DNA of 26,225 nt from Chthoniobacteraceae bacterium (GCA_035550335.1 DASZPK010000724.1:1-26225), one strand, 5' to 3'; numbered from the stretch's first letter, positions 17,990 through 23,131 are shown. A program made the numbers and translations. Notes: generated by a model from the sequence alone, not told the origin.

Positions 17990-20900
17990 TTACGCGTTCG
18001 CGCCCGCCACGTCCTTCTCCGCCGCCGGCGCGGTCCTGCCCGCGAGCTTGGCGGCGGCGGACTTGATCCAGTCGGCGTCGGGCATGGCGTAGGGGCGGAA
18101 GGTTTCGAGGACGCCTTCGCGCTCGTTGAAGAAAATTGCGCGGTGCAGCCCGAGGGTGCTCGCCTTGGGCGAATCGATGAGGCTCGCGGAATCGTTCGCG
18201 CTCATCTGGAAGAGGACGCGCATTTCAAATTCGGTGAGGGCCTTGCGGTTGATGAACCGGTTTACATTGTTAAACGTGTCGACCGTGGCGATGATGTGGA
18301 TGCCGTGGCTGGCGCCCTCGGTCATCAGCTCGTTGAATTGCGCGGAGGCGCTGGGGCCCTCCTCGGAGCTGCTCGAGAAGCTGAAGTCGTCCTCGGCGCG
18401 GAGTTTTTTGTAGCGCTGGAGGTCGTGGATGAAGAGGAAGATGGCGGGAGCGCTGGCATCGGCTTCGCCGGTTTCACTGCGGGATTTCAACTCGGCGGCG
18501 AGGGTGTTGATCGCGGCGGCGATGTCCTGCCCGCGCGCGATGGTGACCTCGTGCGGGATGGCGGCGACCACGCTCTCCATGAAATTCGCCTCGGGCGAGC
18601 CGGGCGGCGCGGCGTGGAGCAGGACGAATTTTGCCGTGCCGGCGGGGTATTGCGCGGAGAGGGCGAGCATCGACATCCCCATCATGGTGAGCGCGGATTC
18701 CTCGCGCTGGCCGATGATGAGCATGTTGCTGCCGGACTGGCGCGCGAACGCGGCCTCGGTCGGGCCCTTGATGGAATTCGGCGCGCCGAGCCATGCCTTG
18801 CCGGAATAGGGCGCGGCGGCGGGCGGGGCGTCGAGCGCGGCGATGAGGAGTTCGTTGTCGGTGATGTTCGCGGGGGCGTTGCCTTCGAACACGATGGGGC
18901 CGGGATATTTGCGGTCGTGGTGCTGGCCGGCGATGACGGTTACTTTTTCGAGCCACTGGTCGCGCTCCTCGTCGGAGAGCCACACGACCTGGAACGGGCT
19001 GTTCCCCTCAATCGCGCCGGCGGAATCGTTGTAGATGCCTTCGCCGGGGCGCGAGAGGAGGCGCGGGGCGGAGTTGTTCTCATCCATGATGAGATAGGCG
19101 TCGGCCTCGTTGCATTGCAGCGCCACGCGGATGACCATCTGGCCGAGCGTGGCGCGGGCGAGCGAATACGCGCCGCCGAGCGTCTGCGAGCCGAGCAGCA
19201 CGTGGATGCCGAAGGCGCGGCCCTGGCGCACAATGCGGTCGAACAGGAGCGAGGCGGTCTGCGCGATGATGTCGTCCTCCACAAAAAATTCCTGGAACTC
19301 GTCGATGAGCAGCAGCGAGCGGGGCATCGGCTCCGTGCCGCCTTCGCGCTTGTAGCCGGCCACATCCTGCACGCCGAGCTTGCGGAAGAGGTCGCCGCGC
19401 CGGCGCAACTCGGCATCGACGCGCTGGAGGACGCTGAGCGCGAACTCGCGGTCGCTCTCGATGGCGACGACCTTCGCGTGCGGGAGATGCTTGGTGGCGT
19501 AGCACTTGAACTCAACGCCTTTTTTGAAGTCGATGAGGTAGAATTCCACCTCGTCGGGGCTGCACCAAAGGGCGAGGTTTGTGATAATAACGTGAAACAA
19601 CGTCGATTTGCCCGAACCGGTCTTGCCGGCGAAGAGGGCGTGCTGGCGCGTGCCTTTGCCGATGGCGAGATATTGGAACTTCGTCGCGCCGGTGCGGCCT
19701 ACGGCCACTTTCAGCTCGTTCGTGGTGGAGTTGGTCCACATCTCCTCGGGTTTCGGCGCGATCTGGAGGAACGGGACTTCGACGCGGTTCGAGTCGATGC
19801 TCGCCTTGCCGATCTTGTGGCTGAGCGTCACCGCCAGCTCGGGATCGGGCGGCGTGTCGAATGCGAGCGTGGCGCCCGGTTCGCCGGAGACGCGGGCGAG
19901 CGTGTAGTTGGGGCCGGTTTTGGAGAAGCAGATGCTGCTCTTGCGCAGCTCGGCGGGCACGAAACCATCGGGGAGCGGCTGGCGCTGGTCCCAATGAATG
20001 AGGGTGAAAATGCCGCACCTCGGGCCGCTGGCGGCGATGCTCTGGAGGCGCTTCGCGGCAATCTCGCTGAAATTCGCCGGGAAATCGGCCACGACTAGGA
20101 AATGATATTTCTCCGCCACGCTGCCGGCCTGCTCGTTGTATTCGGTGATCGTGGCGTATTCGTTGCGGAGATACATCTGGATCACTTTTTCGATGTGCTC
20201 GCTCAATTCGGCGAGGCGCTCCTCGATCTGGTCGCGCTGGGTCCAGATGCGGCGGTTGATGATGCTCTCCTCGTAATCGGAGAGGTGCATCAGGCCCGCG
20301 AAACTCTCGCCGAGGCCCACGGGATCAATGATGGTGAAGCTCAATTTCCCCGGCGGCGTGGTCGCGAGCAGCCGGAGGATGATGTTGTTTAAAATGCCGG
20401 TGACTTCGCCGCCTCCCGACTCGTTCGTCTCGAATAGCACGGAGCCCTGGTCGGGATAGGTGATCGCGAGCGGTAGGGAAATTTGCGCGGGGCCGGGCAA
20501 CGCGAGACGCGGGTCTTTCGGCAGGCCGCCGGGTTGCTTGGCGAGATCGACATCGAGGTGCGCGAATTTCGTTGCGGGCGTGAACTCGGTGGCGGGCTTC
20601 CATGTTTCCACAAGCTGCTGGTCCCATGCGGGGAACATCACCTTCGCGGAAGCGTTCATCTCGTCGAGCGCGGCGTAGAGCGGTGTGATCTCCTTTTTCC
20701 AATCGGCGGTGGCCTCGTCCCACTTCGTTTTTTCCTCGGCGGCGACGGCGGCGGCCTCGGTGTTGTAGGTGGCGGTGTATTGCTCCTTGAGCGCGAGCGC
20801 CTCGGTGGTGTAGCGGCCAAGCTTGCGCTCGCGGGAGGCCTTCAATTCGTCGAGCTTGCGCCCGAGGATCTGGTCGATCTTCGCCGTGATGCGCGGGGGC

Positions 20901-21913
20901 TGGACTTCCATTTTGCGGCGGATGCGCGTTTCGTATTCGCCCTCGATCTGGTTCGCACGGCCCCACTGCTGCTGCAATTCCGCGAGCGTGCGGTCGTGCT
21001 CGGCCTGGATGCGCGCGCGGTCCTGCTCGAGCGAGCCCGAGGCGCTCGCGACGGCGGCGGTGCCCGTGACCATGATCGCGCGAGCGGTGACGATGGAATT
21101 CGCCACCTGCGTGCCGACCGGTTTCGCTTTTTTCAACCCGGACGAATAAACCGCAAAGAGCCCCACCCACAACGCGAACGTGACCGCCCCGCCGATCGGA
21201 ATCCCGAGCGGCGAATGCTGCATGGCAAACCAGAGCCCCGCCCCGGGCAGGAGCGCGAGGAACAACAATACCGGCAACGGCATGCTGCGGAAAAACTTCG
21301 GGAGCGGGAATTCCTCGAACACCGCGAGGTGTTGCTCGGCCTCGCGGAAATGATTGGCAAGATCGTTGAAATGCTCGGGCGAGACCGCGGCCTTGCGGCG
21401 CAGCATGCGCTTGAGCGCGCCGTAGCCGGAGAGGGCCTTGCGCGCGCGCAGCTCGAGGTCCTTGAGCGTCTGCTTGTTCACGTCGAGCTTCGTCGTGAAA
21501 TTGGTGAACGACCCCTCGGCCTTCTCCATCTCGGTTTTCAATTTCCGCTCGGCGAGGAAATTTTTCATCTGGAGGTCGCCCATCCAGCGCTGCTTCACCT
21601 CCTTCGCTTTCATCGGGAGGTTGCGCAGGGAATTGGCGCGGAATTTTTCCACGCGCGCGCGCCGCGTCTCGTAGACGCCCTTCACGTGCTTGCGCGTGTT
21701 TTCATACGCCTCCTCCATCTGCGAGGTGTATTGCTGGAGGCCCGACTCCGTGTGGCGGATCGCATCCTGGCTCTTGCGCGTGGTGGAATAACGGCGCGCG
21801 CTGAGTTCCTGCCCGATCTGCTCCTCGCGCTTCACGAATTTCGCGACGGTCTGCTTGAGGTTCGCGAGGAGATCGAGGCTCCGGTTGAGTCGCAGATCGG
21901 CCCCCTTACTCAC
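17990..21913 (-). CDS. Membrane-anchored FtsK/SpoIIIE-family ATPase (EssC/EccC-like), 1307 aa
   Basis: N-terminal coiled coil, 2 TM helices, then another coiled coil. One intact ATPase domain with Walker A GKTGSGKS (19604-19627), YLIDFKKG, Walker B LLLIDEFQ and QGRAFGIH. It is flanked by two degenerate FtsK-like domains. GTG start overlaps the upstream stop by 8 bp. Confidence 0.92.
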   Translation of the reverse strand: MSKGADLRLNRSLDLLANLKQTVAKFVKREEQIGQELSARRYSTTRKSQDAIRHTESGLQQYTSQMEEAYENTRKHVKGVYETRRARVEKFRANSLRNLPMKAKEVKQRWMGDLQMKNFLAERKLKTEMEKAEGSFTNFTTKLDVNKQTLKDLELRARKALSGYGALKRMLRRKAAVSPEHFNDLANHFREAEQHLAVFEEFPLPKFFRSMPLPVLLFLALLPGAGLWFAMQHSPLGIPIGGAVTFALWVGLFAVYSSGLKKAKPVGTQVANSIVTARAIMVTGTAAVASASGSLEQDRARIQAEHDRTLAELQQQWGRANQIEGEYETRIRRKMEVQPPRITAKIDQILGRKLDELKASRERKLGRYTTEALALKEQYTATYNTEAAAVAAEEKTKWDEATADWKKEITPLYAALDEMNASAKVMFPAWDQQLVETWKPATEFTPATKFAHLDVDLAKQPGGLPKDPRLALPGPAQISLPLAITYPDQGSVLFETNESGGGEVTGILNNIILRLLATTPPGKLSFTIIDPVGLGESFAGLMHLSDYEESIINRRIWTQRDQIEERLAELSEHIEKVIQMYLRNEYATITEYNEQAGSVAEKYHFLVVADFPANFSEIAAKRLQSIAASGPRCGIFTLIHWDQRQPLPDGFVPAELRKSSICFSKTGPNYTLARVSGEPGATLAFDTPPDPELAVTLSHKIGKASIDSNRVEVPFLQIAPKPEEMWTNSTTNELKVAVGRTGATKFQYLAIGKGTRQHALFAGKTGSGKSTLFHVIITNLALWCSPDEVEFYLIDFKKGVEFKCYATKHLPHAKVVAIESDREFALSVLQRVDAELRRRGDLFRKLGVQDVAGYKREGGTEPMPRSLLLIDEFQEFFVEDDIIAQTASLLFDRIVRQGRAFGIHVLLGSQTLGGAYSLARATLGQMVIRVALQCNEADAYLIMDENNSAPRLLSRPGEGIYNDSAGAIEGNSPFQVVWLSDEERDQWLEKVTVIAGQHHDRKYPGPIVFEGNAPANITDNELLIAALDAPPAAAPYSGKAWLGAPNSIKGPTEAAFARQSGSNMLIIGQREESALTMMGMSMLALSAQYPAGTAKFVLLHAAPPGSPEANFMESVVAAIPHEVTIARGQDIAAAINTLAAELKSRSETGEADASAPAIFLFIHDLQRYKKLRAEDDFSFSSSSEEGPSASAQFNELMTEGASHGIHIIATVDTFNNVNRFINRKALTEFEMRVLFQMSANDSASLIDSPKASTLGLHRAIFFNEREGVLETFRPYAMPDADWIKSAAAKLAGRTAPAAEKDVAGANA

Positions 21914-22118
21914 AGTCGCTCCTCACTTTTTTCAAAAGGCCGTCGAGGTCCTGCATCACGCCCGCGGTGCGCGCGGCGTTCGCGGGGAGGTCCTCCAAAA
22001 ATTTGTGCGCGAACTCCCGGCTCTTGACGTCGTTCCAGAACGCCTTCACCTGGTCCCATTCGAACATGAGCTCCTTCACCGCCTGCTCCAAATTGCTTGC
22101 GCTTGCTTTTACACTCAT
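21906..22118 (-). CDS. Small WXG100-like protein (70 aa, W-N-D motif)
   Basis: C-terminal 70 aa of ORF 21906..22550, started at ATG 22118, which overlaps the upstream TGA (ATGA). LMFEWDQVKAFWNDVKSREFAHKF aligns without gaps to the WXG100 core of 22859..23131. Confidence 0.8.
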   Translation of the reverse strand: MSVKASASNLEQAVKELMFEWDQVKAFWNDVKSREFAHKFLEDLPANAARTAGVMQDLDGLLKKVRSDCE

Positions 22119-22705
22119 AAAGTTTCGTTTCCAGCCGGTTGCGATGCCGCTTCGGCGGTTTGGGCGGGTTGCCCCGCTTCGGGGGTTGTGGATGCCGGGA
22201 CGTCCGCGGGGAGCGCGGCATCTTCGGGGGGCGGGCCTTGCGTGTAGGCCGCGAGCGTGCGCTGCAGGGCCACGATATAGGCGATCGCGCGCGGCATGTC
22301 GTCGTCGAGGAAACTTTTCATCCCCTCCATGCGCTTGAGGATCGGGTCGGCGGCGCTGTCGAAATTCTGCGACCATTGTTTCACCAGGCGGAGTTTGCCC
22401 TGCGCCTCGCCGAGCGCGCGCTTCGCCCTTTCTAGCGCCTGGCGGCGGGTCATGAGGGCGGTCTCGTTGTTCTTCACGAGGCGGGCGCTCATGTAATCCT
22501 GCTGGAGCTGGTCGACCTTGCGGGAGATTTTGCGGATTTCGTTTTCCCAATGCACCACGCGGTCATGCTGGAGCCACATGCGGGTCGTGCGCGCCTCGTC
22601 GTTGGCATCGGCCACCGAGCGGCGGGCCTTGGTGAGAAAAATCACCAGCGCCGCCCGGATCATGTCGAGCGCGTCGAGGGAAGTAACTTTGGCCTGGTTG
22701 CCCAT
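22115..22705 (-). CDS. Helical coiled-coil protein, probable extended WXG100-like paralogue (196 aa)
   Basis: Amphipathic helices throughout. N- and C-terminal hydrophobic spacing matches the 90-aa WXG100 protein. Low-complexity Pro/Ala tail. Confidence 0.82.
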   Translation of the reverse strand: MGNQAKVTSLDALDMIRAALVIFLTKARRSVADANDEARTTRMWLQHDRVVHWENEIRKISRKVDQLQQDYMSARLVKNNETALMTRRQALERAKRALGEAQGKLRLVKQWSQNFDSAADPILKRMEGMKSFLDDDMPRAIAYIVALQRTLAAYTQGPPPEDAALPADVPASTTPEAGQPAQTAEAASQPAGNETL

Positions 22706-22730
22706 TTGGTGTTAGCGAGGGGTCGGGATT

Positions 22731-22825
22731 TTAAACACAGAGATACGGAGGAGACAGAGAGACACGGAGAAATATTTCGAGTTTCCCTCTGTGAATCTCT
22801 GTCTCCTCCGTATCTCTGTGTTTAA
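22731..22825. repeat. Perfect 30-bp inverted repeat (95-bp hairpin, TTAA at both ends)
   Basis: TTAAACACAGAGATACGGAGGAGACAGAGA (22731-22760) and TCTCTGTCTCCTCCGTATCTCTGTGTTTAA (22796-22825). Confidence 0.92.
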
Positions 22826-22858
22826 GTAAAGAGCCCGCATCGCGATGTGTGATGTCGT

Positions 22859-23131
22859 TTAACGCTGCTCCAGGTATTGCTCGATGCGCTGCGCTTTGCG
22901 GAGCAGGTAGGGCGTCTGCTTTTCGGAGATCTCGACGAATTTTTTGAGCACCTTCATCGTGGTGATGAACTCCTCGCCGAATTTCGCGCTGTCCTGGTCC
23001 TGCCACGTCGCGCCGAGGGCGGCGAACCGCGCCTGGAGCGAGGCCGCCTTGGCCTGCACGTCCTCGTTGAAGCGTTTCAATTCCGAGGCAAACTTGCGGA
23101 CCTCCTCGGGGTCCATGATCGCTTGAGCCAT
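22859..23131 (-). CDS. WXG100/ESAT-6-like protein (90 aa, W-Q-D variant)
   Basis: About 90 aa helix-turn-helix. N-terminal IMDPEEVRKFASELKRF, central LGATWQDQDSAKF, C-terminal YLLRKAQRIEQYL. Next to an FtsK ATPase. Confidence 0.88.
   Translation of the reverse strand: MAQAIMDPEEVRKFASELKRFNEDVQAKAASLQARFAALGATWQDQDSAKFGEEFITTMKVLKKFVEISEKQTPYLLRKAQRIEQYLEQR

Follow-up and report, generated by a model that had tools for sequence, protein, structure and literature searches.

The stretch of DNA analyzed here (the window) comprises 26,225 nucleotides from a Chthoniobacteraceae bacterium. A sequence-only reading had pointed to three small proteins and aligned parts of them; their open reading frames are all there, on the minus strand, and the quoted alignments are accurate. 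The small genes are followed by an ATPase gene, and the features on which our analysis draws are these:

17990..21913, minus strand: gene for an FtsK/SpoIIIE (EssC/EccC-like) ATPase, 1307 aa, membrane-anchored; fourth gene of the cassette
21906..22118, minus strand: 70-aa gene; truncated WXG100-like hairpin
22029..22037, minus strand: W28-N-D30 turn motif of the 70-aa protein, between predicted helices; aligns to W43-x-D45 with an offset of 15
22115..22705, minus strand: 196-aa gene; long two-helix coiled-coil hairpin with a disordered tail
22244..22279, minus strand: Y143-I-x6-L-x2-Y154, the C-terminal element with which helix 2 of the 196-aa protein ends
22731..22825, no strand assigned: palindromic dispersed repeat inserted between the 90-aa and 196-aa genes
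22859..23131, minus strand: 90-aa gene; WXG100 protein of HP0062-like type with W-x-D at the turn
22874..22909, minus strand: Y75-L-x6-I-x2-Y86, C-terminal element of the 90-aa protein
22997..23005, minus strand: W43-Q-D45, the motif at the hairpin turn in the 90-aa protein; aligned counterpart in HP0062, the WRD turn (PMC3397514)

In the window, the ATG of the 70-aa gene overlaps the stop codon of the 196-aa gene (ATGA), and the end of the 70-aa gene overlaps the GTG start of the ATPase gene by 8 nt. The order 90-196-70-ATPase is kept in all 30 related species-genome loci, 24 of which also share the ATGA overlap joining the 196-aa and 70-aa genes, and all four genes are present on two further contigs from the protein collection. 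Each of the 10 loci from a phylum scan carries the three small genes in the same order, and an ATPase match begins in 6 of them. Wherever the retrieved DNA extends far enough past the 70-aa gene, an ATPase comes next, with the exception of locus L044, which has a kinase-like ORF in that place; locus L043 has a long coiled-coil/TM ORF after the 70-aa gene. The cassette is carried by Chthoniobacter flavus Ellin428, and look-alike clusters occur in Planctomycetota. Three apparent fusion proteins, P0018 (196+70), P0247 (70+ATPase), and P0294, were left out of the evidence because they look like frameshifted assemblies, with a locally scrambled stretch in P0018 and frameshifted junctions or tails in the other two.

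The ATPase matches PF01580 at 1.9e-32 and, partially and with scores under their cut-offs, TIGR03924, TIGR03925, and TIGR03928. No conserved genes flank the cassette in related loci, where the TPR gene upstream of it in the window is not conserved either, and neither EccB, EccD, EccE, MycP, or EspG genes nor an outer-membrane component is linked to it in a host that is presumably diderm. PADLOC returned no defense-system match for the three small proteins, and the promoter/terminator scan returned nothing exceeding shuffles. Most related loci have no more than 3-14 nt between the 90-aa and 196-aa genes; here this spacer contains the palindromic repeat. Its 39-nt arms are 92% complementary, and a search of the same genome lists 43 matching places, counting both strands, spread over about 20 contigs. 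This repeat lies outside the protein system.

The 90-aa gene shares an operon with the ATPase gene in the window, and its product matches Pfam PF06013 over residues 6-85 with 36.8 bits, passing the gathering cut-off of 27.3; against TIGR03930 it scores 29.2, under the cut-off of 44.85. Its identity across all related loci is 53-87%, and a word-index homologue search returned near-identical sequences only. The best solved relative found with the family profile is Helicobacter pylori HP0062 (PDB 3FX7, E=7.7e-9), followed by Bacillus anthracis EsxB (E=1.3e-6), and with EsxA also among the solved relatives; the family aligns end to end with all three hairpins. All 156 distinct sequences of the family have W43 and D45, the turn having Asp instead of the Gly of W-x-G, as in HP0062 (WRD; PMC3397514). 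Judged by its sequence, the 90-aa protein is a true member of WXG100 and belongs to the HP0062 type, in which W-x-D replaces W-x-G; it probably forms a homodimeric four-helix bundle.

The product of the 70-aa gene is shorter than the roughly 100 residues typical of WXG100 proteins, and in the window it has no PF06013 match in Pfam. Its relationship to the 90-aa protein holds at the level of its family, which, clustered at 50% identity, numbers over 1,000 representatives. As the sequence-only reading had it, the protein aligns without gaps to the core of the 90-aa protein (L17-F40 versus L32-F55, 7 identities in 24 positions), and the likeness goes beyond chance: the ungapped profile window between the two families scores 30.2 over 16 columns and 33.8 over 29 columns, ranks top or second among all offsets, and is reached by none of 500 column permutations. 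Comparison of the 70-aa family with the WXG100 family by hhalign gave P=5.5e-4 and 0.002, both in the register of offset 15. With the WXG100-family HMM, the median score was 8.8 bits for 143 representatives of the 70-aa family, compared with 2.0 for reversed and 0.0 for shuffled decoys; 53 of the representatives outscored every decoy, and 110 matches fell at offset -15. In the reciprocal search, all 19 WXG100 members outscored all decoys at offset +15. PF06013 is also the most frequent family match among the 143 representatives (14 at E<=1, best E=6.5e-5), a rate of about 10% with which an empty spot check is consistent, none of ten representatives sampled at even steps down the match list having shown a WXG100 match. 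The named clusters nearest to the protein in the ESM Atlas are WXG100 as well.

W21, W28, and D30 are invariant in the 143 representatives, and the C-terminus has a conserved D-C-E. In a pseudo-fusion AlphaFold2 (AF2) model, described below, the 70-aa protein has predicted helices at residues 3-27, 31-41, and 44-69 (pLDDT 84-89) with a kink at 42-43. The 70-aa protein is a diverged and truncated WXG100-like hairpin, an unannotated paralogue of the 90-aa protein from which about 15 residues are gone at the N-terminus and about 6 at the C-terminus, and in which the turn signature W-x-D-x5-F-x3-[FY] has been kept.

The 196-aa protein is a separate case. AF2 predicts a single hairpin with helices at residues 9-76 and 81-155 (mean pLDDT 85.8; helices, 95-98) and a disordered tail rich in Pro, Ala, and Glu (residues 156-196). 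Each arm is about 33 residues longer than those of WXG100 proteins, the predicted turn, K78-N-N-E81, has neither W-x-G nor L-x-G, and three conserved Trp residues (W44, W53, and W111) are each placed within a helix. The middle of the hairpin is charged, like a two-stranded coiled coil, and its open end is hydrophobic (residues ~11-31 and ~126-154). No Pfam or NCBIfam match rose above noise, fold searches with the model returned generic coiled-coil hairpins only, and neither AF2 model found a Foldseek match in the PDB at E<=1e-3, the hits again being generic coiled coils. The word-index search added few members to this family.

What this hairpin is can be read in more than one way. The sequence-only reading took all three proteins for diverged paralogues and the longest for a WXG100 hairpin with a coiled-coil insertion that lengthens both arms. 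Its predicted topology, a single helix-turn-helix, fits, as do the positions of the termini relative to the turn, with the first Tyr pairing with approximately residue 13-14 in each protein; the C-terminal profile window between the 90-aa and 196-aa families ranks first of 11,319 pairs. Local hhalign comparison, too, matches best in the registers proposed by that reading (C-terminal twice, N-terminal once), and a few members outscore decoys at offsets +68 and +2. The hhalign matches are, however, not significant (P=0.087, 0.25, and 0.33 against the 90-aa family), the signal fell with more diverse alignments, permuted and reversed controls attain an equal window score, and the registers are mixed; against the 70-aa family, P was 0.078 and 0.021, in registers that disagree. 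Besides the unlike turn, PF06013 and LXG are absent from the 25 most-matched families of 48 members of the 196-aa family, no WXG100 match is listed for any member, and convergence readily yields long helical hairpins. The quoted N-terminal residues are accurate (L13/I16/L20/F23 versus V11/F14/L18/F21), but the pattern is not notable, ranking 69 of 11,771 windows, and the roughly 70 extra residues claimed between the N- and C-terminal patterns of the 196-aa protein come to 66 more than in the 90-aa protein. The claim of common descent had itself been staked on profile-profile comparison, and there it fails for the 196-aa protein: the predicted hairpin with longer arms fits, but homology to the other two is not supported, and the protein is not demonstrably their paralogue. 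We consider descent of all three from one ancestor unlikely. A role in which the hairpin is no substrate but serves the hexameric ATPase as a stalk, an adaptor, or a regulator, comparable to FliJ/YscO in type III systems, strikes us as decidedly improbable. An antiparallel coiled coil of about 150 residues encoded just upstream of an ATPase would suit such a role, and YscO (PDB 4MH6) aligns over 157 residues, but its Z=8.9 lies inside the generic range for long helices. The weak Pfam matches to YscO (5 of the 48 members, best 1.1e-3) and FliJ (2 of 48, best 3.3e-4) were rejected as generic coiled-coil noise, equalled by spurious families such as Prominin (22 of 48). [quoted passage not shown]

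The C-terminal Tyr element noticed in the 90-aa and 196-aa proteins poses a question of its own. In the 156 sequences of the 90-aa family, position 75 is Tyr in 110, Phe in 44, and Leu in 2, L76 and Y86 are invariant, and position 83 is Ile in 141 and Val in 15. Among 48 diverse members of the 196-aa family, position 143 is Tyr in 33, Phe in 8, His in 3, and Trp in 1, position 144 is Leu, Ile, or Val, L151 is kept in 47, and Y154 is the sole invariant column (48/48). The spacing of the consensus, [YF]-L-x6-[LIV]-x2-Y, is thus kept in both families, remote members included, as the sequence-only reading had expected; the first aromatic is absent in the most remote members (L043, L044, L045, and L047). 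By profile score, on the other hand, the likeness does not exceed chance: the 14-column window scores 13.7, matched by 45% of column permutations, and the top window, shifted by one residue, scores 15.7 (permuted maximum, 13.6 +/- 2.6; reversed-profile maximum, 14.4). It is quite conceivable, though on the whole we doubt it, that the element has no common function and is a generic a/d-type hydrophobic seam, noticed post hoc, that ends two unrelated amphipathic helices. Positions i, i+1, i+8, and i+11 share one helix face, the first aromatic is replaceable, and the middle residues differ, with K79 invariant in the 90-aa family and position 147 variable in the 196-aa family. Against such a seam speaks the terminal Tyr, kept in 156/156 and 48/48 sequences; of about 147 positions that could be paired with the conserved C-terminal segment of the 90-aa protein, the one scoring best is precisely where the last helix ends, and a local [IL]-[DE]-x-Y-[LT] core survives in the most remote pairs. 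The export motif YxxxD/E was found in none of the three families, which confirms at the family level its reported absence from the 90-aa C-terminus. The only conserved [FY]-x3-[DE] is in the long hairpin, at residue 132 and thus some 20 residues ahead of the helix end, and the 90-aa and 196-aa families both lack the pattern HxxxD/ExxhxxxH.

How these proteins might act together was approached with an AF2 pseudo-fusion of the 196-aa and 70-aa proteins, built from the window's own joined pieces with unpaired natural rows and a natural tether (pTM 0.68). Four-helix-bundle chains (ferritin- or Dps-like; EspB with Z=10.9) align over model residues 5-264 and cover 120-142 residues, at Z values in the range, below about 13, that the tool itself treats as non-specific for helical bundles. 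Read indirectly from these fold-search ranges, the 70-aa hairpin appears in the model to dock where the long hairpin opens, which lends indirect support to the hetero-oligomeric bundles proposed by the sequence-only reading. A 70-aa hairpin sitting on the hydrophobic open end of the 196-aa protein would create a short four-helix bundle, and the conserved element [YFHW]-L-x6-L-x2-Y at the helix end could then come close to the partner's W-x-D loop. Such an arrangement would be reminiscent of EsxA/EsxB and PE/PPE pairs, with their composite signal of W-x-G plus Y-x3-D/E, and also of the LXG-Lap1-Lap2 pre-secretion complex. As this helix-end element is found in the 90-aa protein too, both it and the 196-aa protein may present the element to the same ATPase site or to a common partner.

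Taken as a whole, the three genes are best explained, in our judgment with somewhat better than even confidence, as encoding small helical subunits that belong to a conserved type VII-like cassette of four genes in Verrucomicrobiota. The sequence-only reading was partly right, common descent holding for the 70-aa and 90-aa proteins. We infer complex formation and ATPase binding, the small proteins likely forming bundles that act with the ATPase, and possibly export. A more specific idea, which we put forward tentatively and with low expectations, is that the 196-aa and 70-aa proteins make up a new type of split export signal, in which the 70-aa protein would supply a W-x-D loop and the 196-aa protein the Tyr-bearing helix end [YF]-L-x6-L-x2-Y, this helix end replacing YxxxD/E. 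The same helix end in the 90-aa protein would then be an export arm too, the element being read by the single active ATPase module. If true, PVC bacteria would own a minimal type VII-like export pathway with a separate recognition code.

Surveys from about 2011-2012 onward list cassettes of WXG100 proteins and FtsK-like ATPases for bacteria of the Gram-negative type. Zhang et al. 2012 (PMC3482391, Table 1 footnote 6) noted a cassette type with a 'solo' WXG domain and listed verrucomicrobia and planctomycetes among its lineages; HP0062 is the solved example (PDB 3FX7/2GTS; PMC3397514). Such Gram-negative systems are functionally unconfirmed (PMC10765036), and we found no experimental test of these cassettes in the literature open to search. 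Our cassette shares with this type a WXG100-type hairpin whose turn carries W-x-D (in HP0062, WRD) and whose gene adjoins that of an FtsK/SpoIIIE ATPase, and with HP0062 an aromatic residue and a Tyr at aligned C-terminal positions. Unlike the 'solo' WXG type, it has two further conserved small genes, one of which encodes a cryptic second WXG-like protein.

Other T7SS offer partial parallels. In the LXG systems of T7SSb, a long helical domain of about 200 residues is likewise co-encoded with small WXG100-like hairpins, Lap1 (DUF3130) and Lap2 (DUF3958), and Lap1 has a conserved aromatic-containing motif (FxxxD) near the end of a second helix; the LXG-Lap1-Lap2 pre-secretion complex is thought to recruit cargo to EssC (PMC9600955). 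The cassette proteins, by contrast, have no sequence match to LXG, DUF3130, or DUF3958, the cassette has neither a toxin domain nor an immunity gene, and its WXG100 protein itself carries the helix-end motif. EspB of T7SSa, in which a disordered, Pro-rich tail succeeds the helical bundle, resembles the long hairpin in this respect, its match to the 196+70 model lying in the non-specific range. In EsxA/EsxB and PE/PPE, hairpins pair into four-helix bundles in which one partner supplies the W-x-G loop and the other the Tyr-bearing C-terminal export arm. The cassette differs from mycobacterial T7SSa pairs in lacking YxxxD/E, and it reverses the PE/PPE arrangement, as the long partner has the Tyr and the short partner W-x-D. 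Similar to the HxxxD/ExxhxxxH pattern at WXG100 C-termini (Poulsen et al. 2014, PMC3935865), which sets two conserved hydrophobic positions 11 apart on one helix face, the Tyr pair of the cassette has the same spacing, but its element is without the central acidic and hydrophobic positions. Set against these systems, our findings are an incremental gain that refines a known, understudied system and reveals no new kind. What they add is a cassette with a fixed set of three small helical proteins rather than a solo WXG, an unannotated short WXG100 relative, and an invariant Tyr-bearing helix end common to a WXG100 protein and a long hairpin, with Y86, Y154, W28/D30, and specific pairings as concrete targets for testing.

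Among the three small proteins of the cassette, the sequence-only reading had seen diverged paralogues, two of them sharing a C-terminal Tyr motif. Their genes lie in one tightly packed row of five, from a TPR protein to the ATPase, and a palindromic element sits within it:

23250-26207, minus strand, TPR protein of 985 aa
22859-23131, minus strand, 90-aa WXG100 protein
22731-22825, spacer between the 90-aa and 196-aa genes, palindromic element of ~95 nt with 39-nt arms, 92% complementary
22115-22705, minus strand, 196-aa protein
21906-22118, minus strand, 70-aa protein
17990-21913, minus strand, FtsK/SpoIIIE ATPase of 1307 aa

In the window, an ATGA overlap joins the 196-aa stop to the 70-aa start, and the 70-aa gene in turn shares its last 8 nt with the ATPase gene, which starts at GTG. 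When one genome per prokaryotic species was scanned, 30 loci encoding a 196-aa relative emerged, all verrucomicrobial by record title and most named Chthoniobacter or Chthoniobacterales, C. flavus Ellin428 included. The order 90-196-70-ATPase is kept in all 30, the ATGA overlap in 24. Profile scanning of the phylum found the 196-aa family in 11 of 401 genomes; two of these are distant members (155-156 aa, identity 20-22%) that are still flanked by a WXG100 gene and a ~70-aa gene. One remote locus, L044, has WXG, 156-aa and 75-aa genes but, where the ATPase would follow, a Ser/Thr-kinase-like ORF with an HRDLKPEN motif (L044:102-1475, minus strand). The same four genes occur with other flanks on two further distant contigs, and no conserved flanking gene was found among the related loci compared, the TPR gene included. 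The 70-aa gene is present in 13 of 18 other genomes of the window's taxonomic family and in 1 of 12 from other sampled families of its order. The genome itself, a MAG of 83% completeness, has this WXG100 locus only. Matches to the palindromic element are listed at 43 places (both strands counted), spread over ~20 contigs of this genome with 70-90% identity, and the spacer that holds it is just 3-14 nt in most related loci; the element resembles an insertion of MITE or REP type within the operon.

The 90-aa protein scores above the Pfam WXG100 cut-off (36.8 vs 27.3 bits), and its family profile aligns end to end with H. pylori HP0062 (3FX7; 7.7e-9), B. anthracis EsxB (~1e-6) and S. aureus EsxA (0.012). 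Of these, HP0062 has been solved as a hairpin dimer whose bend carries WRD; the HP0062 gene clusters with an FtsK/SpoIIIE gene (PMC3397514). W43-Q-D45 is invariant among 156 distinct sequences of the 90-aa family. Over the same loci, this protein is much better conserved than its two partners: its identity is 69-87% across the 30 nearest loci and 53-76% across ten remoter loci, against ~38-66% for the 196-aa and 70-aa proteins in the closest loci and down to ~22-31% in distant ones. Metagenomes hold more than 5,000 clusters of it at 90% identity.

We identify the 70-aa protein as a WXG100-type hairpin that has been truncated and has diverged. With shallow alignments, its comparison with the 90-aa protein was weak (hhalign P=0.036). 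An exhaustive profile search revealed a large family (1,185 representatives at E<=1e-3), and 143 diverse representatives, compared with the WXG100 family, gave P=5.5e-4 and 0.002, each time at the offset of 15 that aligns W28-x-D30 with W43-x-D45. The decoy-controlled HMM test settles the relationship. Under the WXG100-family HMM, the median score was 8.8 bits for 70-aa members, 2.0 for their reversed copies and 0.0 for shuffled ones; 53 members outscored every decoy, and 110 matches shared offset -15. In the reciprocal search, all 19 WXG100 members ranked above all decoys, at +15. The ungapped 24-residue alignment first read from the sequence, with its 7 identities, was correct, and none of 500 column permutations attained the score of the ungapped window. 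PF06013 was the commonest Pfam match among the 143 members (14 members, best E=6.5e-5), and five matched WXG100_2. W21, W28 and D30 are invariant, with F36 in 138 and C69 in 142 of the 143. In an AF2 model, the 70-aa part folds into a helix at 3-27 and another at 31-69 with a kink at 42-43 (pLDDT 84-89), and W28-N-D30 sits exactly at the turn. The protein retains W-x-D-x5-F-x3-[FY] but is shorter by ~15 residues at the N-terminus and ~6 at the C-terminus, the terminal Tyr being among those missing. The family ends in a conserved R-x-D-C-E (window 21906-21920), whose second-last Cys does not persist in L043 and L044, the two remotest loci. The family HMM also catches YWTD-repeat proteins (LRP6 chains and P0203, a 5709-aa protein), spuriously, through an L-x-W-x5-K-x-[YH]-W-x-D-x-K stretch.

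The same descent had been proposed for the 196-aa protein, as a WXG100 hairpin with a long insertion. Its topology agrees: AF2 predicts a single long hairpin (helices 9-76 and 81-155, pLDDT 95-98) with its turn at K78-N-N-E81 and a disordered tail at 156-196, and the shared N- and C-terminal patterns and the extra residues (about 66) were read correctly. Homology, however, was not supported in profile comparisons with the 90-aa family (P=0.087, 0.25 and 0.33), a result that the sequence-only reading had itself named as grounds for rejection; by that yardstick, this part of the proposal is refuted. Comparisons with the 70-aa family gave P=0.078 and 0.021 in differing registers. In the decoy-controlled test, just 8 sequences out of 48 and 6 out of 19 exceeded decoys, in mixed registers, though the originally proposed +68 and +2 occur among them. 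Fold searches (Foldseek, ESM Atlas structures) returned generic coiled-coil hairpins only, and neither PF06013 nor LXG was among the 25 most-matched families of the 48 members. Weak matches to YscO and FliJ were no better than plainly spurious coiled-coil ones. The ESM Atlas clusters nearest to the hairpin come mostly from planctomycetes, and one of them counts 2,908 members. In a 353-aa cluster, an Imm33-like domain (PF24719) follows the hairpin, a cluster-level lead hinting that such hairpins can carry a C-terminal passenger. P0034, a 153-aa protein on a 740-bp metagenome contig, switches from 196-family protein to a WXG100 C-terminus right after a shared A-Q-R and is probably an assembly chimera at that short stretch.

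Residue counts along the C-terminal Tyr motif (positions in the 90-aa / 196-aa protein; 156 and 48 sequences)
First aromatic, 75 / 143: 90-aa family Y 110, F 44, L 2; 196-aa family Y 33, F 8, H 3, W 1, other 3
Next residue, 76 / 144: 90-aa family L 156; 196-aa family L, I or V
Hydrophobic, 83 / 151: 90-aa family I 141, V 15; 196-aa family L 47
Final Tyr, 86 / 154: 90-aa family Y 156; 196-aa family Y 48

These counts show that the Tyr motif is real and conserved within each family; Y154 is the sole invariant column of the 196-aa family. In the most remote pairs the first aromatic is lost and [IL]-[DE]-x-Y-[LT] kept in both proteins. Of all 11,319 pairings of windows from the two families, the C-terminal one ranks first, but scores in its range also come from permuted and reversed profiles. 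A functional element common to both proteins is therefore plausible but unproven. YxxxD/E, first noted as missing from the 90-aa C-terminus, is absent from all three families; HxxxD/ExxhxxxH, a pattern of WXG100 proteins (PMC3935865), was likewise absent from the families checked. The long hairpin has the sole conserved [FY]-x3-[DE], at residue 132, in 34 of 48 members.

The middle of the long hairpin is charged, and its ends (~11-31 and ~126-151) exceed by far the hydrophobicity that a two-stranded coiled coil requires, which suggests a docking site for two further helices. We modeled the window's 196-aa and 70-aa proteins as one chain, with the disordered tail as its natural linker, which gave a pTM of 0.68. 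Against this model, chains of compact four-helix bundles align with 120-142 residues over positions 5-264; they are ferritin- or Dps-like, plus M. tuberculosis EspB at Z=10.9, and the search tool deems Z values in this range non-specific for helical bundles. These fold matches suggest, indirectly, that the 70-aa hairpin packs on the open end of the long hairpin, the site of the Tyr element.

To conclude, the original observation is partly confirmed and its interpretation partly supported. Our analysis adds a quantitative case for the 70-aa protein as WXG100-type, a negative result on 196-aa homology and conservation data for the Tyr element. The cassette belongs to an already known kind of system, of putative function, which Zhang et al. 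(2012; PMC3482391) had noted. The proposed 196/70 arrangement would resemble EsxA/EsxB and PE/PPE pairs, in which the W-x-G loop and the Tyr export arm lie on separate chains, and the LXG-Lap1-Lap2 complex (PMC9600955).
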